In this document: positions 7,153 to 34,026 of the stretch, one piece after another
Layout of the letters: every line of letters starts with the position of its first letter
How positions within the stretch are numbered: the stretch's first letter is position 1
NCBI GenBank assembly: GCA_963926085.1
Contig: CAWUWV010000188.1
Span: 1-34,026, forward strand
Direction: 5' to 3'
DNA length: 34,026 bases
Origin: an uncultured Alphaproteobacteria bacterium
GTDB lineage: Bacteria > Pseudomonadota > Alphaproteobacteria > Bin95
Notes under the pieces: generated by a model
Database searches by the model: none
Seen by the model: the letters and a program-made list of their open reading frames with translations, nothing else
What the model was told of the DNA's origin: nothing
Made by a program: the position numbers and the translations under genes

Positions 7153-7602
7153 ATGCTGGAGTTTCTGGCAGATATATATCTCTGGACCAAAGCGCTCCAT
7201 GTAATTTCTATGATCGCCTGGATGGCGGGATTGCTCTATTTGCCGCGCCTTTTTGTCTATCACACTGAAGTTGACGCTGGATCGCCAGAATCTGAACGTT
7301 TCAAGATCATGGAACGACGATTATTGCGGGCGATTATGAACCCAGCCATGATCGCAACATTCTTGTTTGGTGGGCTGTTATTGGCGACACCAGGCGTGAT
7401 TGATTGGTCTAGTGGCTGGATCTGGGTGAAGCTCGTATTGGTGTTGGGTCTCAGCCATTTCCATCACTTGATGGGACGTTGGCGGAAGGATTTCGCAGTG
7501 GATCAGAATACGCGGTCCAGCCGATATTTCCGTGTCGCCAATGAAGTTCCAACTTTGGCAATGATCGTGATCGTGATCATGGTTATTGTTCGACCGTTTT
7601 GA
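7153..7602 (+). CDS. hemJ: protoporphyrinogen IX oxidase HemJ (UPF0093/CopD-like membrane protein)
   Basis: KALHVISMIAWMAGLLYLPRLFVYH signature, four predicted TM segments, 2 nt after hemE. Confidence 0.8.
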   Translation: MLEFLADIYLWTKALHVISMIAWMAGLLYLPRLFVYHTEVDAGSPESERFKIMERRLLRAIMNPAMIATFLFGGLLLATPGVIDWSSGWIWVKLVLVLGLSHFHHLMGRWRKDFAVDQNTRSSRYFRVANEVPTLAMIVIVIMVIVRPF

Positions 7603-7828
7603 TCCCATGGATCTACAGCAATCTGCTTGACAAACGTCTTCAAACGCCGCACTAAACCAGCGTTCCTGCGGCGATCGCCCTTTTAGGGTCCCGCCTCTGC
7701 CGCAGATTGGGTCTATTCGCTGCTTGACGGCAAGCTGAGTAGAAACCAGACAAGCCACCCTTAGCTAAACTCGACCTTGACGCCACAAAACATGGAATTT
7801 GATCGTGCTGGATAACGCTCCCCAGACG

Positions 7829-9085
7829 ATGAACCTGCAAGAACTCAAGCAGAAAACTCCGGCCGCTCTCCTAGAGATCGCCGAAGAGCTTGAGATCGAA
7901 AACGCAAGTTCACTCCGCAAGCAAGACCTGATGTTCACCATTCTAAAAGAATGGGCGGACCAGGACGTCGTCATTACTGGCGATGGTGTGCTGGAATTGA
8001 TGCCGGATGGCTTCGGATTCTTGAGATCCCCGGATTCCAATTATCTGCCAGGTCCAGATGATATTTATCTCTCACCTGCGCAAATCCGTCGGTTCAGCTT
8101 ACGGACCGGGGATACGGTCGGTGGTGAAATTCGGGCGCCGAAAAATGGTGAGCGCTATTTCGCATTGGTCAAAATGAACCATGTGAATTATGAGGTGCCG
8201 GAGAAAGTTCGCCAGCGCGTTAATTTTGACAATCTGACGCCGCTTTATCCAGAAGAACGCTTAAAGCTTGAGGTTGATGACCCGACCTCCAAAGACCTGA
8301 CGACGCGGGTGATTGACCTTGTGTCACCGATTGGTAAGGGACAGCGCGCGCTTGTTGTGGCGCAACCCAGGACCGGTAAAACGGTGATGTTGCAGTCTAT
8401 CGCCCATGCGATTGCGACCAACAATCCGGAAGTGAAGCTTCTGGTGCTGCTCATTGATGAGCGCCCGGAAGAAGTCACGGACATGCAGCGCTCTGTTCGA
8501 GGCGAGGTCATTTCCTCGACCTTCGATGAGCCGGCCTCGCGTCACGTGCAAGTCGTTGAAATGGTGATTGAAAAAGCCAAACGCTTGGTTGAGCATAAGC
8601 ATGATGTCGTCATCCTGCTTGATTCCATCACTCGTCTTGCCCGGGCTTACAACACGGTCGTGCCGTCATCCGGCAAGGTGCTGACAGGTGGTGTTGACGC
8701 CAACGCCCTGCAACGCCCGAAGCGGTTCTTCGGTGCGGCCCGAAATATCGAAGAAGGCGGCAGCTTATCTATCATTGCTACGGCGCTGATCGATACTGGC
8801 AGCCGCATGGATGAAGTCATCTTCGAAGAGTTCAAAGGTACGGGCAACGCGGAAATCGTGCTGGATCGGAAGCTCGCTGACAAACGTATCTGGCCTGCCA
8901 TTGATATCGGCAAGTCTGGTACGCGTAAGGAAGAGTTGCTGGTTGACCGTCAGGATCTCAACAAAATGTGGATGCTTCGCCGTGTGCTGATGCCCATGGG
9001 CACCCAGGACGCGATGGAATTCTTGGTTGGCAAGCTACGTGAGACGAAGAGCAACGCAGACTTCTTCGACCAAATGAACCAGTAG
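7829..9085 (+). CDS. rho: transcription termination factor Rho
   Basis: [26 protein letters not shown]-terminus, GFGFLR RNA-binding motif, Walker A AQPRTGKT. 418 aa counted from the ATG at 7829. Confidence 0.95.
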
Positions 9086-25028: not shown

Positions 25029-25531
25029 ACGGCGGCATTCCCGCGGCAGCCAGGGCAGAGGCCCTCTGCCTCAATCGCAGTACTGGCGATGGCGAACCCA
25101 ACGGCACCGGCTGCCTGCCCAAGGGCTGCACCGACACCAGCTGCGGCATCTTCCGCGACGGCGTTGCAGGCGCTGCAGATCAGGAACACAGGCCGGTGGT
25201 CCTCGCCCGGTTGTGCGCAAGCGACGAAGGCGTTCATCCGTTCAAGTTTGTGCGCGAAGCCGTGGTTCACCAGGAACTCCAGCGCGCGGTAGGCGACGGG
25301 TGGATGCGCAGGCTGCCCTTCTGCAGAAAGGCGGGCCAGCACATCATAGGCACCCAGCGCGCGGTGTTCTTCCAGCAGAATCTCCAGCACACGGCGGCGG
25401 ATGGGCGTTAGGCGTAGGTTCTGGTCCGCACAGACTGCCTCAACATCCGCCGCAGCGGTTTGCACGCAGCGGCGATGGTCGTGGCTGTCGAAGGCGACGG
25501 GTTTGTTATCTGGATCGGATTTGGATGGCAT
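25025..25531 (-). CDS. zur: Fur-family zinc uptake regulator Zur
   Basis: Winged-helix region LTPIRRRVLEILLEE..GAYDVL, CxxC pairs (CSACN, CPGC). ATGA overlap with znuC. Confidence 0.85.
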   Translation of the reverse strand: MPSKSDPDNKPVAFDSHDHRRCVQTAAADVEAVCADQNLRLTPIRRRVLEILLEEHRALGAYDVLARLSAEGQPAHPPVAYRALEFLVNHGFAHKLERMNAFVACAQPGEDHRPVFLICSACNAVAEDAAAGVGAALGQAAGAVGFAIASTAIEAEGLCPGCRGNAAV

Positions 25532-25548
25532 TGGGCAAGGCCATTGAT

Positions 25549-25563
25549 TGTTATGTTATCACA
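25549..25563. promoter_or_regulatory. Zur box in the zur/znuA divergent promoter region
   Basis: TGTTATGTTATCACA matches 13 of 15 positions of the TGTTATAWTATAACA core. It lies in the 48-bp gap between the zur and znuA starts. Confidence 0.65.
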
Positions 25564-25579
25564 TTATATATCGACGCCC

Positions 25580-26500
25580 ATGTTTAAGCAATTCATTAGA
25601 ATAACGTCATCCCTGCTCGCCGCCTGCGCTATCGCAATACCAGCAGCAGCGGCACCGAAGGTCGTAACGGACATACCGGCAGTCCATGCGTTGGCGGCTA
25701 AGGCTATGGAGGGTGTTGGTGCGCCGGTGCGATTGCTGCCGCCGGGGGCATCGCCCCATGGCTATCACATGCGCCCGTCAGAAGCGTCGGCGCTGGCAGA
25801 AGCGGATATCCTTATCTGGATCGGGCCAGAGCTAACGCCTTGGCTGGACCGGGCGCGCCGGAAGCTCAATGCGAAAGCTCCAAGCCTGGCTCTGCTCGGG
25901 GTTCCAGGAACCACACGGCATGAGGCGCGGGAGGAAGCAGTTTTCACGGCCCATGCCGATGGCGGCCATGATCATGGTCACCACCATGGACCCGTTGACC
26001 CCCACGCATGGTTGGACCCGGTGAATGGTGCGAGGTGGCTGGGCGCAATCGCACGCGCCCTTGGGTCCATCGACCCCGCCAATGCTGGCACTTATACCGC
26101 CAACGCTGCGGCAGGCGAGGCGGAACTTTGGGTGCTGAAAGAAGCGCTAAACGCCGAATTGGCACCTGTCCGCAATCAGCCCTATGTCGTTCTGCATGAT
26201 GGGTTCCAGTATTTTGAGGACCGGTTCCGAATTTCAGCCCTTGGCGCGATCCGCCTGTCCGATGGCGCAGCGCCCAGCCCCCGCCGATTGGCAACACTGC
26301 GTCGTGGGATCAAAGCCAGCGGTGCGCGCTGCATATTCCGGGAGCCGCAATACTCATCCGCTCTGGCGGCTGGGCTCGCTGGGCCGGACGTGCGCACCGG
26401 CGTTCTCGACCCGCTTGGTTGGGATTTAGAGGCCGGGTGGTCGCTCTATCCAACCCTGCTTCAACAGCTTGGAACGAACCTCCGGCAGTGTTTGGAATAG
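25580..26500 (+). CDS. znuA: periplasmic zinc-binding protein ZnuA
   Basis: Signal peptide MFKQFIRITSSLLAACAIAIPAAAA at the internal ATG 25580. His-rich loop HADGGHDHGHHHGPVDPHAW. Confidence 0.9.
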   Translation: MFKQFIRITSSLLAACAIAIPAAAAPKVVTDIPAVHALAAKAMEGVGAPVRLLPPGASPHGYHMRPSEASALAEADILIWIGPELTPWLDRARRKLNAKAPSLALLGVPGTTRHEAREEAVFTAHADGGHDHGHHHGPVDPHAWLDPVNGARWLGAIARALGSIDPANAGTYTANAAAGEAELWVLKEALNAELAPVRNQPYVVLHDGFQYFEDRFRISALGAIRLSDGAAPSPRRLATLRRGIKASGARCIFREPQYSSALAAGLAGPDVRTGVLDPLGWDLEAGWSLYPTLLQQLGTNLRQCLE

Positions 26501-29773: not shown

Positions 29774-29848
29774 GCTGCCGTAGCTCAGGGGTAGAGCACT
29801 CCCTTGGTAAGGGAGAGGCCCGGGGTTCAATTCCCCGCGGCAGCACCA
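29774..29848 (+). tRNA. tRNA-Thr (anticodon GGT), CCA encoded
   Basis: Folds by hand into a cloverleaf: acceptor GCTGCCG/CGGCAGC, D arm GCTC/GAGC, anticodon arm CTCCC-TTGGTAA-GGGAG, T arm CGGGG-TTCAATT-CCCCG, then ACCA. Confidence 0.9.
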
Positions 29849-32423: not shown

Positions 32424-32757
32424 GCAGGCGACAATGACCCAGGGAACGCAGTCCGGCTTGACGCCGCTATTCGATGAAGCTGAACTGGCCACGCAGTTTC
32501 ATTTGAGCGAACGTGCGTTTAGAGACTTGCGGGCCGAGGTCGGTTGTGGATTTAAGGCGGGACGGAAATGGCTGTTCGAAAAAGCAGACGTGCAGGCGAT
32601 CATCCTACATCTGCGCCGGAAAACGCAGGAAGCCTTGAAGGCGGAGGAGCCGGGACTGATCGATCCCGCAGGGAAAGCGGCCTCGCGCTCTACCCGCCGG
32701 GGGCGCTCAAGCCGTCAAAAAACTGGTACATCCGGGGTGCCTACCTTGGGGTGGTAA
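32413..32757 (+). CDS. excisionase/AlpA-like helix-turn-helix protein; its 3' end runs into the IS and its stop codon is supplied by IS sequence
   Basis: ELATQFHLSERAFRDLRAEVGCGFKAGRKWLFEKADVQAIILHL resembles excisionase-family HTH_17 domains. Alternative start at 32434. The TAA at 32755-32757 lies within the IS left end. Confidence 0.5.
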   Translation: MKAEQATMTQGTQSGLTPLFDEAELATQFHLSERAFRDLRAEVGCGFKAGRKWLFEKADVQAIILHLRRKTQEALKAEEPGLIDPAGKAASRSTRRGRSSRQKTGTSGVPTLGW

Positions 32758-32791
32758 TCCCCCCGAAAATCAGTGGTGTTCAGCAGTAGAA
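32753..32791. repeat. IS left terminal inverted repeat
   Basis: GGTAATCCCCCCGAAAATCAGTGGTGTTCAGCAGTAGAA, compared with the right-end complement GGTAATCCCCCCATTTTTAATGGGGCTCGGCTGTAGAAC. Confidence 0.7.
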
Positions 32792-32967
32792 TTTTCTCGG
32801 CAAGATATCTGAGGAGATTTTCGATGAAGACAGCACGATATAGCGACGTCCAGATCATGGTAATTTTGAAGCAGGCAGAGGGCGGTGTTCCTGTGTCTGA
32901 GCTTTGCCGTGAACACGGCATGAGCAGCGCCTCATTTTACAAATGGCGGGCCAAATTCGGCGGTATG

Positions 32968-33004
32968 CCCTCTCAGTGATGCAAGCATCACCTGCCGGGT
33001 TATA
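32968..33004 (+). repeat. 37-nt hairpin element, copy A, inserted in orfA
   Basis: CCCTCTCAG-TGATGCAAGCATCA-CCTGCCGGG-TTATA. Removing it joins ...KFGGM to DASLIAEMK... in frame. Confidence 0.75.
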
Positions 33005-33114
33005 GACGCATCGCTGATTGCCGAGATGAAGGATTTGGCGGATCAGAACCGGCGGCTGAAGAAGATGTATGCCGAGATGAGCATGCAGAATGATTTACTG
33101 AAGGAGGCGCTCGG

Positions 33115-33121
33115 AAAAAAG
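33115..33121 (+). promoter_or_regulatory. A AAA AAG programmed -1 ribosomal frameshift heptamer of the IS3 transposase
   Basis: AAAAAAG at the end of orfA. The downstream orfB frame is -1 relative to the orfA C-terminal frame (positions checked modulo 3). Confidence 0.7.
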
Positions 33122-33134
33122 CATTGAGGCCGTC

Positions 33135-33173
33135 CGTTGCCCGGCAGGCGGATGCATGCATCCGCTGAGAGGG
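33135..33173 (-). repeat. 39-nt hairpin element, copy B, inverted relative to A, inserted just after the frameshift site
   Basis: The reverse complement reads CCCTCTCAG-CGGATGCATGCATCCG-CCTGCCGGG-CAACG. Removing it gives [17 protein letters not shown] in the orfB frame. Confidence 0.75.
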
Positions 33174-33986
33174 TCAGCGTCGCGAGATGGCCGTGCAAGC
33201 GGTCGTACGGCACGGGGTTAGTATAGCGCTGGCCTGCCGCGCCTTTCAGATCAGCGAGACTTGCTATCGCTACGAGCGCACGTTGAGCGACGCGAACGCG
33301 GAGATCGCCGAGTGGCTGGTCAAATTGACGACCAACCGGCGCACGTGGGGATTTGGCCTATGCTTTCTGTATCTGCGCAACGTCAAAAGCTTTGGCTGGA
33401 ACCATAAACGGGTTTATCGCATCTATTGCGAACTGGAGTTGAACCTGAGGATCAAGCCGAGAAAGCGCTTGAAACGAGACAAGCCTGATGCGCTGGCAGT
33501 GCCTGACGCGCCAAACCATACGTGGTCCATGGACTTCATGGCAGATCAATTGGCTGACGGTCGATCTTTCCGGGCATTGAATGTGCTGGACGACTTTAAC
33601 CGCGAGGGTTTGGGTATTGAGGTGGACTTCTCCCTGCCAGCGGAGCGTGTTGTGCGCAGCCTGAACCTGATCATGGAATGGCGCGGCAAGCCGACGACGA
33701 TACGTGTGGACAATGGCCCGGAGTACGTCAGTGGCAAGCTGATGGGCTGGGCAGAGAAACGGGGCATTCACATCGAATACATCCAACCCGGCAAGCCGCA
33801 GCAGAATGCTTATATCGAGCGCTACAATCGCACGGTTCGCGGCGAATGGCTGGCTCAATACATCTTTGAAACGATAGAGGAGGCACAGGAACAGGCCACG
33901 GCATGGCTGTGGACTTACAACAATGACAGACCCAACATGGGCATTGGCGGTATCACTCCCGCCATGAAACTGAAAATGGCCGCGTA

Positions 33987-34025
33987 GTTCTACAGCCGAG
34001 CCCCATTAAAAATGGGGGGATTACC
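33987..34025. repeat. IS right terminal inverted repeat
   Basis: Complement matches the left end (12 identical terminal nt plus a shared ...GTAGAA). Contains the hairpin CCCCATT-AAA-AATGGGG. Confidence 0.7.
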
Positions 34026-34026
34026 C

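Follow-up and report, generated by a model that had tools for sequence, protein, structure and literature searches.

The described mobile units nearest to the element reported here are repetitive extragenic palindromic (REP) sequences, with their inverted doublets (REPINs), and the miniature elements derived from insertion sequences (ISs) of the IS200/IS605 type. REPs are extragenic, number tens to hundreds per genome, are species-specific, start with GTAG, and flank a gene for a REP-associated tyrosine transposase (RAYT) (PMC3116915, PMC3479197). Here, we describe a hairpin element found in two copies, A and B, in a 34,026-nucleotide stretch of DNA from an uncultured Alphaproteobacteria bacterium (assembly GCA_963926085.1, contig CAWUWV010000188.1, positions 1 to 34,026 of the forward strand; hereafter the window), where both copies interrupt the transposase genes of an IS3-family element of the IS407 group. 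The two copies belong to a family with at least 200 distinct instances in public genomes and metagenomes, mostly from Rhodobacterales, which takes its place beside REP sequences, REPINs and IS200/IS605-derived miniature elements, its nearest described counterparts, among small non-autonomous hairpin elements. The family is previously undescribed (we found no occurrence of its arm sequences in the literature searched, and keyword searches found nothing comparable), and its habitat is unusual. We propose that A and B are non-autonomous mobile hairpins of 37-41 nt that are recognized by their structure, live as hyperparasites of ISs, and are moved by an enzyme acting in trans, a reading to which we assign a probability of about 0.75.

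Each copy consists of two 9-nt arms around a palindromic center, followed by a short tail: copy A reads CCCTCTCAG TGATGCAAGCATCA CCTGCCGGG TTATA, and copy B, as its reverse complement, CCCTCTCAG CGGATGCATGCATCCG CCTGCCGGG CAACG. An earlier reading of the window, made from its letters alone (the sequence-only reading), had noticed that the two copies share both arms and had seen no other copy. A search for CCCTCTCAG-N(10-22)-CCTGCCGGG agrees, returning exactly two matches in the window, at 32968-32999 on the plus strand and 33140-33173 on the minus strand, and no further copy; the same composite pattern has no match in 100 dinucleotide-preserving shuffles. Either 9-mer arm alone, allowing at most one mismatch, occurs in the window at chance frequency, so the signal resides in the two arms combined.

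Copies A and B are insertions, as the sequence-only reading had maintained. Uninterrupted copies of the same IS, for which plasmids of Pseudohalocynthiibacter aestuariivivens and Sulfitobacter dubius served as references, show exact empty sites with nothing between their halves: GGCGGTATG/GACGCG at site A, where uninterrupted relatives read GGTATG/GACGC, and GGCCGTC/TCATCG at site B (a slash marks the insertion point here and below). Empty and filled sites differ by exactly 37 nt for A and 39 nt for B. Since the insert boundary cannot slide at either site, there is no target duplication, again as had been claimed; and this, together with the lack of the usual terminal inverted repeats, bears out the earlier view that the copies did not arrive by DDE transposition. 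A DDE-type miniature transposable element with inverted repeats (MITE) was rejected on similar grounds, in that no target is duplicated and the two ends, CCCTCTCAG and CCCGGCAGG, belong to the hairpin and are inverted only loosely. Both segments are missing from uninterrupted relatives that are 90% and 86% identical, four copies of the IS (H6, H7, L271 and L272) lack B, and a database search found hundreds of uninterrupted 362-aa IS3-family transposases, the top ones 84-88% identical and from Rhodobacterales and Rhizobiaceae, all of which goes against the segments being native to this IS family.

Each insert disables the reading frame of its host IS, a further point on which the sequence-only reading was right. 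Copy A shifts the frame and brings a TGA (32977-32979) into the OrfA frame, so that the open reading frame (ORF) at 32773..32979 ends in ...KFGGMPSQ. Copy B, 13 nt past the slippery site, keeps the frame and supplies a TGA (33166-33168) to the phase that is read after the -1 shift. Judged from these frames, A and B together abolish both the OrfA and the OrfAB transposase of the window IS. Deleting the two copies in silico from 32752-34026 leaves a 1199-bp stretch that encodes an 88-aa OrfA, the length that had been predicted, and, when OrfA and OrfB are fused at the A AAA AAG heptamer, an open 362-aa product that is collinear with its homologues, among them the S. dubius protein, and that matches 362-aa IS3-family transposases with PF01527, PF00665 and PF13683. 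The -1 frameshift at this heptamer is one we infer by analogy with other IS3-family elements. A and B are the sole lesions in the window IS.

Contigs that encode exactly the window's 266-aa OrfB place the two insertions in order. In one of them, L270, the IS is 97.6% identical to that of the window (30 mismatches) and measures 1236 bp, or 1273 minus 37: copy B is present and identical at 39 of 39 bases, and site A is empty (GGCGGCATG/GACGCATCG), an insertion polymorphism of the kind that the sequence-only reading had suggested looking for. In L271 and L272, whose ISs are about 90% identical to it, both inserts are absent and the length is 1197 bp, or 1273 minus 37 minus 39. With B present and site A empty in L270, B inserted first and A later, and the tails TTATA and CAACG, which mark different sub-families, indicate that neither copy was copied from the other. 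On these comparisons, A and B are recent, separate insertion events.

ISs that carry the hairpin also multiply. The 1273-bp IS with both inserts occurs, 100% identical, at a second site, where its flanks read ...cttccagg and caggcacc... and include a 4-bp duplication, CAGG; the left flank at the window's own site reads ...ccttggggt. More than 10 metagenome samples independently yielded an assembly of this same 1273-bp sequence. On the Dinoroseobacter shibae plasmid pDSHI04 (NC_009958.1), three 100%-identical, unannotated copies of an IS5-family element (IS427/IS1248-like; 2060-2982, 55842-56760 and 64735-65657) lie between differing flanks; each contains two hairpins, and in each orfB has TGG changed to TGA. 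A related intact IS occupies 25327-26084 of the same plasmid (83% identical), and Paracoccus relatives of the D. shibae IS (IS1248-like, 87% identical, annotated as intact) are 82 nt shorter, which equals 2 x 41 nt; no empty-site relative above 87% identity was found. Since the D. shibae IS multiplied with a nonsense codon, an intact gene is not required for multiplication, and hairpin-bearing ISs keep duplicating, presumably with transposase supplied in trans. Two metagenome contigs combine flanks from different sites: L265 joins a window-type left flank to the right flank of the CAGG site, and L270 joins a unique left flank to that same right flank. Either IS copies have recombined with one another here, or the assemblies are chimeric across the repeat.

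To delimit the family, we scanned one-genome-per-species contigs (at least 119 stretches) and metagenome contigs (at least 120 stretches). Among the genome matches listed, about 34 loci are genuine, with a palindromic center and a conserved tail, and the remainder includes expected chance matches; these loci lie mostly in Rhodobacteraceae or Paracoccaceae, and also in Cohaesibacter, Labrenzia and Pararhizobium. Metagenomes contribute at least 120 loci, and a BLAST search of plasmids with the consensus reached 66 records, mostly of the Roseobacter group with a few from Shinella and Allorhizobium. Viral contigs hold four genuine copies only, all in transposase genes; two further candidates on a viral contig (L249:783-821 and 1030-1068) were dismissed as chance matches inside tRNA genes (T-arm GGTTTGAATCC ... 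CCA). When at most two mismatches per arm are allowed and a hairpin is required, the set holds at least 267 unique instances, at least 223 of them high-confidence; the structure analysis used 178 distinct element sequences. The consensus runs CCCTCTC(A/G)(G/T), a center of 12-21 nt, (C/A)CTGCCGGG, and a 5-nt tail, which is CARYG in about 90% of elements and TRAYA in the rest, a minor sub-family. Total length is mostly 37-41 nt and falls in all three phases (51, 67 and 60 elements), so most inserts shift the frame, and those that stay in frame can add a stop, as B does.

The entire element is taken up by one hairpin. From base to tip it comprises a 3-bp base of CCC paired with GGG, an internal loop of TCT opposite CC, two pairs with a bulged C, and a stem of 6-8 bp whose sequence is free but paired, closed by a loop of 2-4 nt; the 5-nt tail follows on the 3' side. 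Pairs are exchanged as pairs throughout the family: at L9-R1, 138 elements have G-C, 33 have T-A and 3 have C-G; the next pair (C1-C-1) takes all four Watson-Crick types; and the outer pair L3-R7 is C-G in 164 elements and T-A in 8. For L9-R1 and all six center stem positions tested, the paired fraction is 0.81-0.99, above all 1000 column shuffles. The suggestion that the stem differences between A and B are compensatory thus extends to the family as a whole. Meanwhile T4, C5 and T6, the opposing C5' and C6', and the bulged C are 96-100% invariant, and the L8-R3 pair, A-T in 131 elements and G-T in another 47, is never A-C, which favors the CCCTCTC strand as the one that folds. Together, a stem that is free but paired, fixed unpaired bases and this asymmetry match expectations for a nucleic-acid hairpin that a protein reads, and not those for a double-stranded binding site. 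Taken singly, the window copies have unremarkable folding energies (z about -1 to -1.5); the evidence for structure is the family-wide covariation, which shows, by comparison of sequences, a hairpin under structural constraint with fixed unpaired bases.

The flanks of the genome matches are transposase coding sequence in almost every case. Interrupted families are IS3, IS5, IS256, IS630, IS6, IS481, IS66 (TnpB), IS110, IS21 (both IstA and IstB), IS91 and an ISNCY-like sequence, and at the junctions that were read (Table 1) excising exactly the arm-hairpin-arm unit plus 5 nt restores the frame. A Pfam search of 150 flanking ORF fragments, whose result is a count of families and not a per-instance fraction in transposases, returned transposase families for all 25 of the most frequent entries, including DDE_Tnp_1, rve, HTH_21, rve_3, DUF4096, Transposase_mut, IstB_IS21, HTH_Tnp_1, DDE_Tnp_1_5, DUF772, zf-IS66, Y2_Tnp, DDE_Tnp_IS240 and DDE_Tnp_IS66, among others. 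The same concentration appears on whole replicons. Plasmid pROLI127 (NZ_CP143424.1, 127 kb) carries at least 11 copies, every one within an unannotated IS remnant (IS5, IS427-group, IS21 istB and IS407-group), and none in about 100 kb of polysaccharide and other genes; a rough annotation sum puts IS-derived DNA at about 14% of this plasmid. On pDSHI04 (86 kb), six of the seven copies lie in an IS5-family element. In contig L198, 4.3 kb of IS DNA contains 12 copies, and the 5.6 kb of ordinary genes next to it has none; L159 holds 8 copies in 4.1 kb. Removing the hairpin from istB of pROLI127 yields an open frame of 253 aa; the IS21 copies of L198 and L159 keep broken frames after in-silico excision, owing in part to a second insert family and to indels in the arms. 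Near-restriction of the family to transposable elements is shown by these sequence surveys, and it strongly reinforces the idea, raised by the sequence-only reading, of a parasite of ISs.

The second insert is about 44 nt long (...GAGCCATTGGAACGCCATTGGTCCGAGAGACAATGGCGAAC...), with a stem formed by CGCCATTG and CAATGGCG and a loop that contains CCGAGAGA, and is unrelated to the main hairpin. It occurs at L159:1288-1340, at L198:6656-6708, 7421-7473 and 7817-7869, and in L208 (minus strand, near 1798), translates as ...PLVRETMAN..., and interrupts istA and istB of IS21 in copies riddled with the main hairpin. From these sites, more than one family of tiny hairpins may invade ISs. We also considered and rejected a 5'-untranslated-region or Shine-Dalgarno element, to which CTGAGAGGG-N6-ATG on the reverse strand of some loci might point: the ATG is an internal methionine of WSM/DFMADQ in IS407-group transposases.

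The sequence-only reading had remarked that GACG follows both copies. This is real, though as one case of a weak consensus rather than a strict target: across the flanks of 223 instances, C occupies -1 in 74%, and G-A-Y-G follows at +1 to +4, giving C/GAYG with about 3 bits in total. The insertion point also varies with the element. Among the 16 instances with a TRAYA tail, G stands at -1 in 14, across at least 12 different contexts, and CARYG tails go with C at -1 and have G there in three instances only; in addition, tail position 4 covaries with flank position +2, T going with A and C being enriched for G. Some sites have been entered more than once. Site A (KFGGM/D) holds TRAYA elements in forward orientation in the window, in P. 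turbinis and in L215, and in R. litoralis it holds a CARYG element that points the other way. The variants at site B differ between the window, R. litoralis and L059, three in all, and homologous IS21 sites in L159 and L198 hold different element variants. These patterns suggest that more than the weak consensus is involved in target choice, and the link between tail and target base offers a natural experimental handle on how the target is read.

We propose that the element, when single-stranded, would fold into its defined hairpin, and that a structure-recognizing enzyme acting in trans would insert it precisely, without target duplication, between C (or G, for the TRAYA sub-family) and GAY. 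This enzyme would most likely be of the HUH/Y1 single-strand transposase type or a functional equivalent. Having knocked out the transposase of its host IS, the element would then spread as the crippled IS is mobilized in trans. The closest working model is the 'peel and paste' movement of IS200/IS605-type elements, and it is by analogy with these that such a mechanism is suggested here. What the scheme has to accommodate is precise duplication-free insertion, the constraint on structure, the link between sub-family and target base, near-restriction to ISs, presence/absence polymorphism and carriage by ISs that multiply; its conditional parts are the use of single-stranded DNA, the enzyme class and the reason for the IS bias.

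Several observations weigh against this proposal. Classical IS200/IS605 elements and their miniatures have two different end hairpins, and the element has one. No Y1 homologue was found in 1.45 Mb of loci by phmmer with IS200 and IS608 TnpA queries. An annotated IS200/IS605 tnpA, the only one seen, does lie in an IS-rich region of pROLI127 (62055-62453), followed by a long perfect palindrome, TCTTCTCTCTTGAATTTTGAAACC...GGTTTCAAAATTCAAGAGAGAAGA; since this flanking palindrome is unrelated to the hairpin element, we rejected the gene as the autonomous partner. A 3-bit target by itself explains neither the recurrent hot spots nor the restriction to ISs, and some of the flanking ORF fragments gave no Pfam match. 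In five genomes the element occupies one shared position, just before GACGAAG, within a conserved non-coding block of about 210 nt. The sample was partly ascertained by the exact arm sequences, and the replicon-wide surveys cover two complete plasmids and contigs. The 210-nt block itself (L018:1379-1617 on the minus strand, L073:6872-7110, L105:783-1021, L100:2724-2962 and L051:1466-1707) has a long terminal inverted repeat (CGCCGCGCCTTYGTC ... GACGAAGGCGCGGCG), different neighboring genes in the five genomes and no Rfam match, and because of the inverted repeat and the differing neighbors it is probably a MITE.

Why the element lies in ISs can be explained in several ways, among which we rank a hyperparasite, possibly with a preference for ISs, above pure hitch-hiking without targeting, and the latter above a host system directed against ISs. 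That insertion is actively directed at transposable elements as a class, whatever their transposase family, by either a homing hyperparasite or a cellular anti-transposon system, is a tentative idea that we would not favor at present; homing of this kind could make use of single-stranded or replicating transposition intermediates, and a hint that class-level targeting may be general comes from the second hairpin family, which interrupts the same IS21 copies. Unlikely, in our estimation, is an account with no targeting at all, in which the element inserts near-randomly at C/GAYG in a few source genomes, insertions into ordinary genes are purged, and those in ISs are amplified and carried along. 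The weakness of the target consensus would fit such a history, as would the copying and spread of hairpin-bearing ISs, the occurrence of the element in a non-coding MITE-like repeat with different gene contexts in five genomes, and the identity of the arms across many genera, which is expected of horizontally moving DNA. It sits poorly with the independent use of the same nucleotide positions by different variants in both orientations, and with a density in ISs of about one copy per 350-500 bp, far above that in the intergenic DNA of the window or of the two complete plasmids. The 34-kb window holds no copy outside the IS, and no genome among the matches listed reaches a REP-like copy number. 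Less likely still is a host defense acting at the level of DNA, in which a cellular enzyme inserts a hairpin cassette into active or multicopy transposable elements and so silences ISs. The extreme concentration of copies in IS DNA and the repeated hits on single ISs (as in L198 and L159) speak for it, as does the range of chemistries affected, from DDE and DEDD (IS110) to HUH (IS91) and the IstB ATPase; since the lesions of the window IS are hairpins only, hairpin insertion seems faster than ordinary decay, and the unrelated second insert in the same IS21 copies points the same way. Yet no mechanism is known that would let an enzyme recognize DNA as 'transposon' in unrelated families alike, the element had no associated gene that we could find, and intact ISs stand beside riddled ones (three uninterrupted IS3 copies on pROLI127; IS1182, IS3 and IS110 on pDSHI04). 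Moreover, hairpin-bearing ISs still multiply, which would make the silencing incomplete.

Two further accounts would leave the transposase functional or the segments ancestral, and both fare worse. Were the hairpin a spliced mini-intron or a signal for ribosomal bypass (a 'hop'), transposase could still be made, and it is true that hairpins are the only lesions in the window IS, that istB of pROLI127 opens once its hairpin is taken out, and that IS copies with hairpins have multiplied. We nevertheless regard this as very improbable and have rejected it: take-off and landing codons do not match (ATG versus ATA or ACA at site A, TCC versus GGT at site B), the element occurs in both orientations in the same gene, which a strand-specific RNA signal would not tolerate, and the D. 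shibae IS multiplied with a TGA nonsense codon in orfB besides its hairpins. The flanks are unconserved, so that splice sites would have to be definable by the element alone, and the IS21 copies stay fragmented after in-silico removal. Nor is there an Rfam match: at E<=1 the covariance models hit nothing in the window except a tRNA (29774-29845), and at the gathering score they hit nothing on five family loci. The position of copy B, 13 nt downstream of the slippery A6G, and that of the D. shibae element, likewise just past the frameshift region of its IS5-family host, might suggest a native stem-loop that stimulates frameshifting. A native origin, or an assembly artefact, we can nonetheless practically dismiss. 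Uninterrupted copies of the IS and the 362-aa homologues lack the segments, copy B adds an in-frame stop, and the element is found in unrelated IS families; the independent assemblies of the 1273-bp sequence argue against an artefact.

How this hairpin compares with described systems bears on the assignment made by the sequence-only reading, which had likened the copies to the REP/RAYT or IS200/IS605 type. The first half of that comparison fails on location and on GTAG, and no Y1 homologue, the type to which a RAYT belongs, turned up in the 1.45 Mb of loci searched; the second half holds as an analogy. Like IS200/IS605 elements and their miniature derivatives, the element inserts precisely without duplication, lacks classical terminal inverted repeats, and has an imperfect hairpin with bulged or unpaired bases in which structure is conserved over sequence. 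A short motif adjoins its insertion point, and the tail bases beside the hairpin covary with the base at that point, which recalls the guide-target pairing of IS608. It is unlike them in measuring only 37-41 nt, in its much weaker target motif, in the lack of a cognate Y1 transposase among the loci searched, and in its near-exclusive location inside other ISs, which is not a trait of the IS200/IS605 family. With REPs and REPINs it shares a short (20-40 nt) imperfect palindrome that is probably non-autonomous and read as a hairpin, and its two window copies are inverted, as in a REPIN doublet. Unlike REPs, it is intragenic in ISs, shared across genera and low in copy number per replicon (two in the window, seven on pDSHI04, at least 11 on pROLI127), and it ends in CCCTCTC... 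and ...GGGCARYG, with GTAG absent from the consensus; unlike the halves of a REPIN, the paired window copies are separate insertions made at different times, with 130 bp of IS coding sequence between them. Membership of the REP/RAYT class was rejected on location, copy number and GTAG.

Other small repeats resemble the family in single respects. Heterocyst-forming cyanobacteria, as treated by Elhai et al. in 2008, reportedly carry small dispersed repeats (SDRs) of about 21-27 nt that can form hairpins, appear to move without duplication and are often nested in mobile sequences. These cyanobacterial small dispersed repeats are cited in the REP literature (Elhai 2008, Genome Res 18:1484, in PMC3116915). 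They differ from the hairpin element in sequence, size and phylum, lie mainly between genes, and are not known to disrupt transposase genes specifically. The palindromic elements of Rickettsia and the Correia elements of Neisseria are likewise small palindromic repeats that can sit in protein-coding genes, at about 100-150 bp each. The Rickettsia elements are in frame and translated, whereas the hairpin element occurs in all three phases and destroys the ORF; Correia elements, unlike it, have inverted-repeat ends and a TA duplication. Some autonomous ISs also seek out other repeated DNA: IS4321 and IS5075 (IS1111 group) insert in the ends of Tn21-family transposons, and IS1397 inserts in REP sequences. 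ISPpu9, too, is an IS that inserts in REP sequences without duplication (PMC12288879). Such transposon-hunting ISs share with the hairpin element a preferred habitat in another mobile or repeated element and the absence of duplication. They are, however, autonomous elements of 1.3-1.5 kb with a DEDD transposase that recognize one specific sequence, whereas the hairpin element is non-coding, about 40 nt long, and found in many unrelated transposase genes.

If the restriction to ISs reflects real targeting, a tiny DNA element or system finds and inactivates ISs of many unrelated families. This would add a layer of parasite-on-parasite control to the dynamics of bacterial genomes and would point to a new way of recognizing and disabling mobile DNA at the DNA level. 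On a more modest reading, the family is among the smallest mobile DNA units described, and it explains many of the 'transposase pseudogenes' of Rhodobacterales, on plasmids and chromosomes alike, that annotation pipelines leave blank. In-silico removal of the inserts restores IS reading frames and aids the classification of ISs. The family also provides a sequence-defined system in which to find the enzyme: its substrate is 40 nt long, empty and filled sites can be placed to the nucleotide, and the sub-families differ in their target bases.

Table 1. Features of the interrupted insertion sequence in the window, and protein junctions read across inserts in other IS families (slash, insertion point)
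Feature	Position	Strand	Remarks
Hairpin copy A, 37 nt, TTATA-tail sub-family	32968..33004	+	Pattern match; found neither in uninterrupted relatives nor in L270
Hairpin copy B, 39 nt, main sub-family, tail CAACG	33135..33173	-	Pattern match; absent from H6, H7, L271 and L272; identical in L270 and L260
Host IS, IS3 family, IS407 group	32753..34025	+	1273 bp as found; 1197-1199 bp minus both inserts
Terminal inverted repeats of host IS, GGTAATCCCCCC	32753-32764 and 34014-34025		Left end is where five related copies begin aligning
orfA 5' part, HTH domain, to ...YKWRAKFGGM	32824..32967	+	Truncated by copy A
orfA 3' part, DASLIAEMK...GKKH	33005..33127	+	Stop at 33125-33127
A AAA AAG slippery heptamer, putative programmed -1 frameshift from OrfA to OrfB	33115..33121	+	Seen in sequence
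orfB remainder, rve integrase core, DDE, intact	33174..33987	+	266-aa ORF, ATG at 33187, open to stop
IS3 junction across insert			...NLVHS/MSRRGNCHDNA
IS5 junction across insert			...YR/IELMFGRLKDWRRVATRYD
IS256 junction across insert			IIYTTNA/IESLNRVIRK
IS630 junction across insert			PDLNP/IEMAFSKLK
IS6 junction across insert			RVIVT/DKLRSYG
IS481 junction across insert			KPNHP/WTNGQVERMNRTIK
IS110 junction across insert			SRPTM/RFVAVKSEEQQ

The right terminus of the host IS, at 34025, reads GGGGGGATTACC. We had suspected selection on the hairpin-bearing lineage from clusters of 266-aa OrfB proteins at 90-98% identity; these clusters consist mostly of uninterrupted ISs in which the gene caller chose the same ATG, and the idea was dropped. 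The tRNA gene at 29774-29845 (72.7 bits; its anticodon stem-loop reads CUUGGUAAG) is located some 2.9 kb upstream of the window IS, and in contig L267 the DNA just to the right of the IS repeats the 3' end of the tRNA (GGGGTTCAATTCCCCGCGGCAGCACCA). Given this repeat beside the IS, the DNA between 29846 and the IS resembles an island that integrated at the tRNA gene, with the IS at its far edge.

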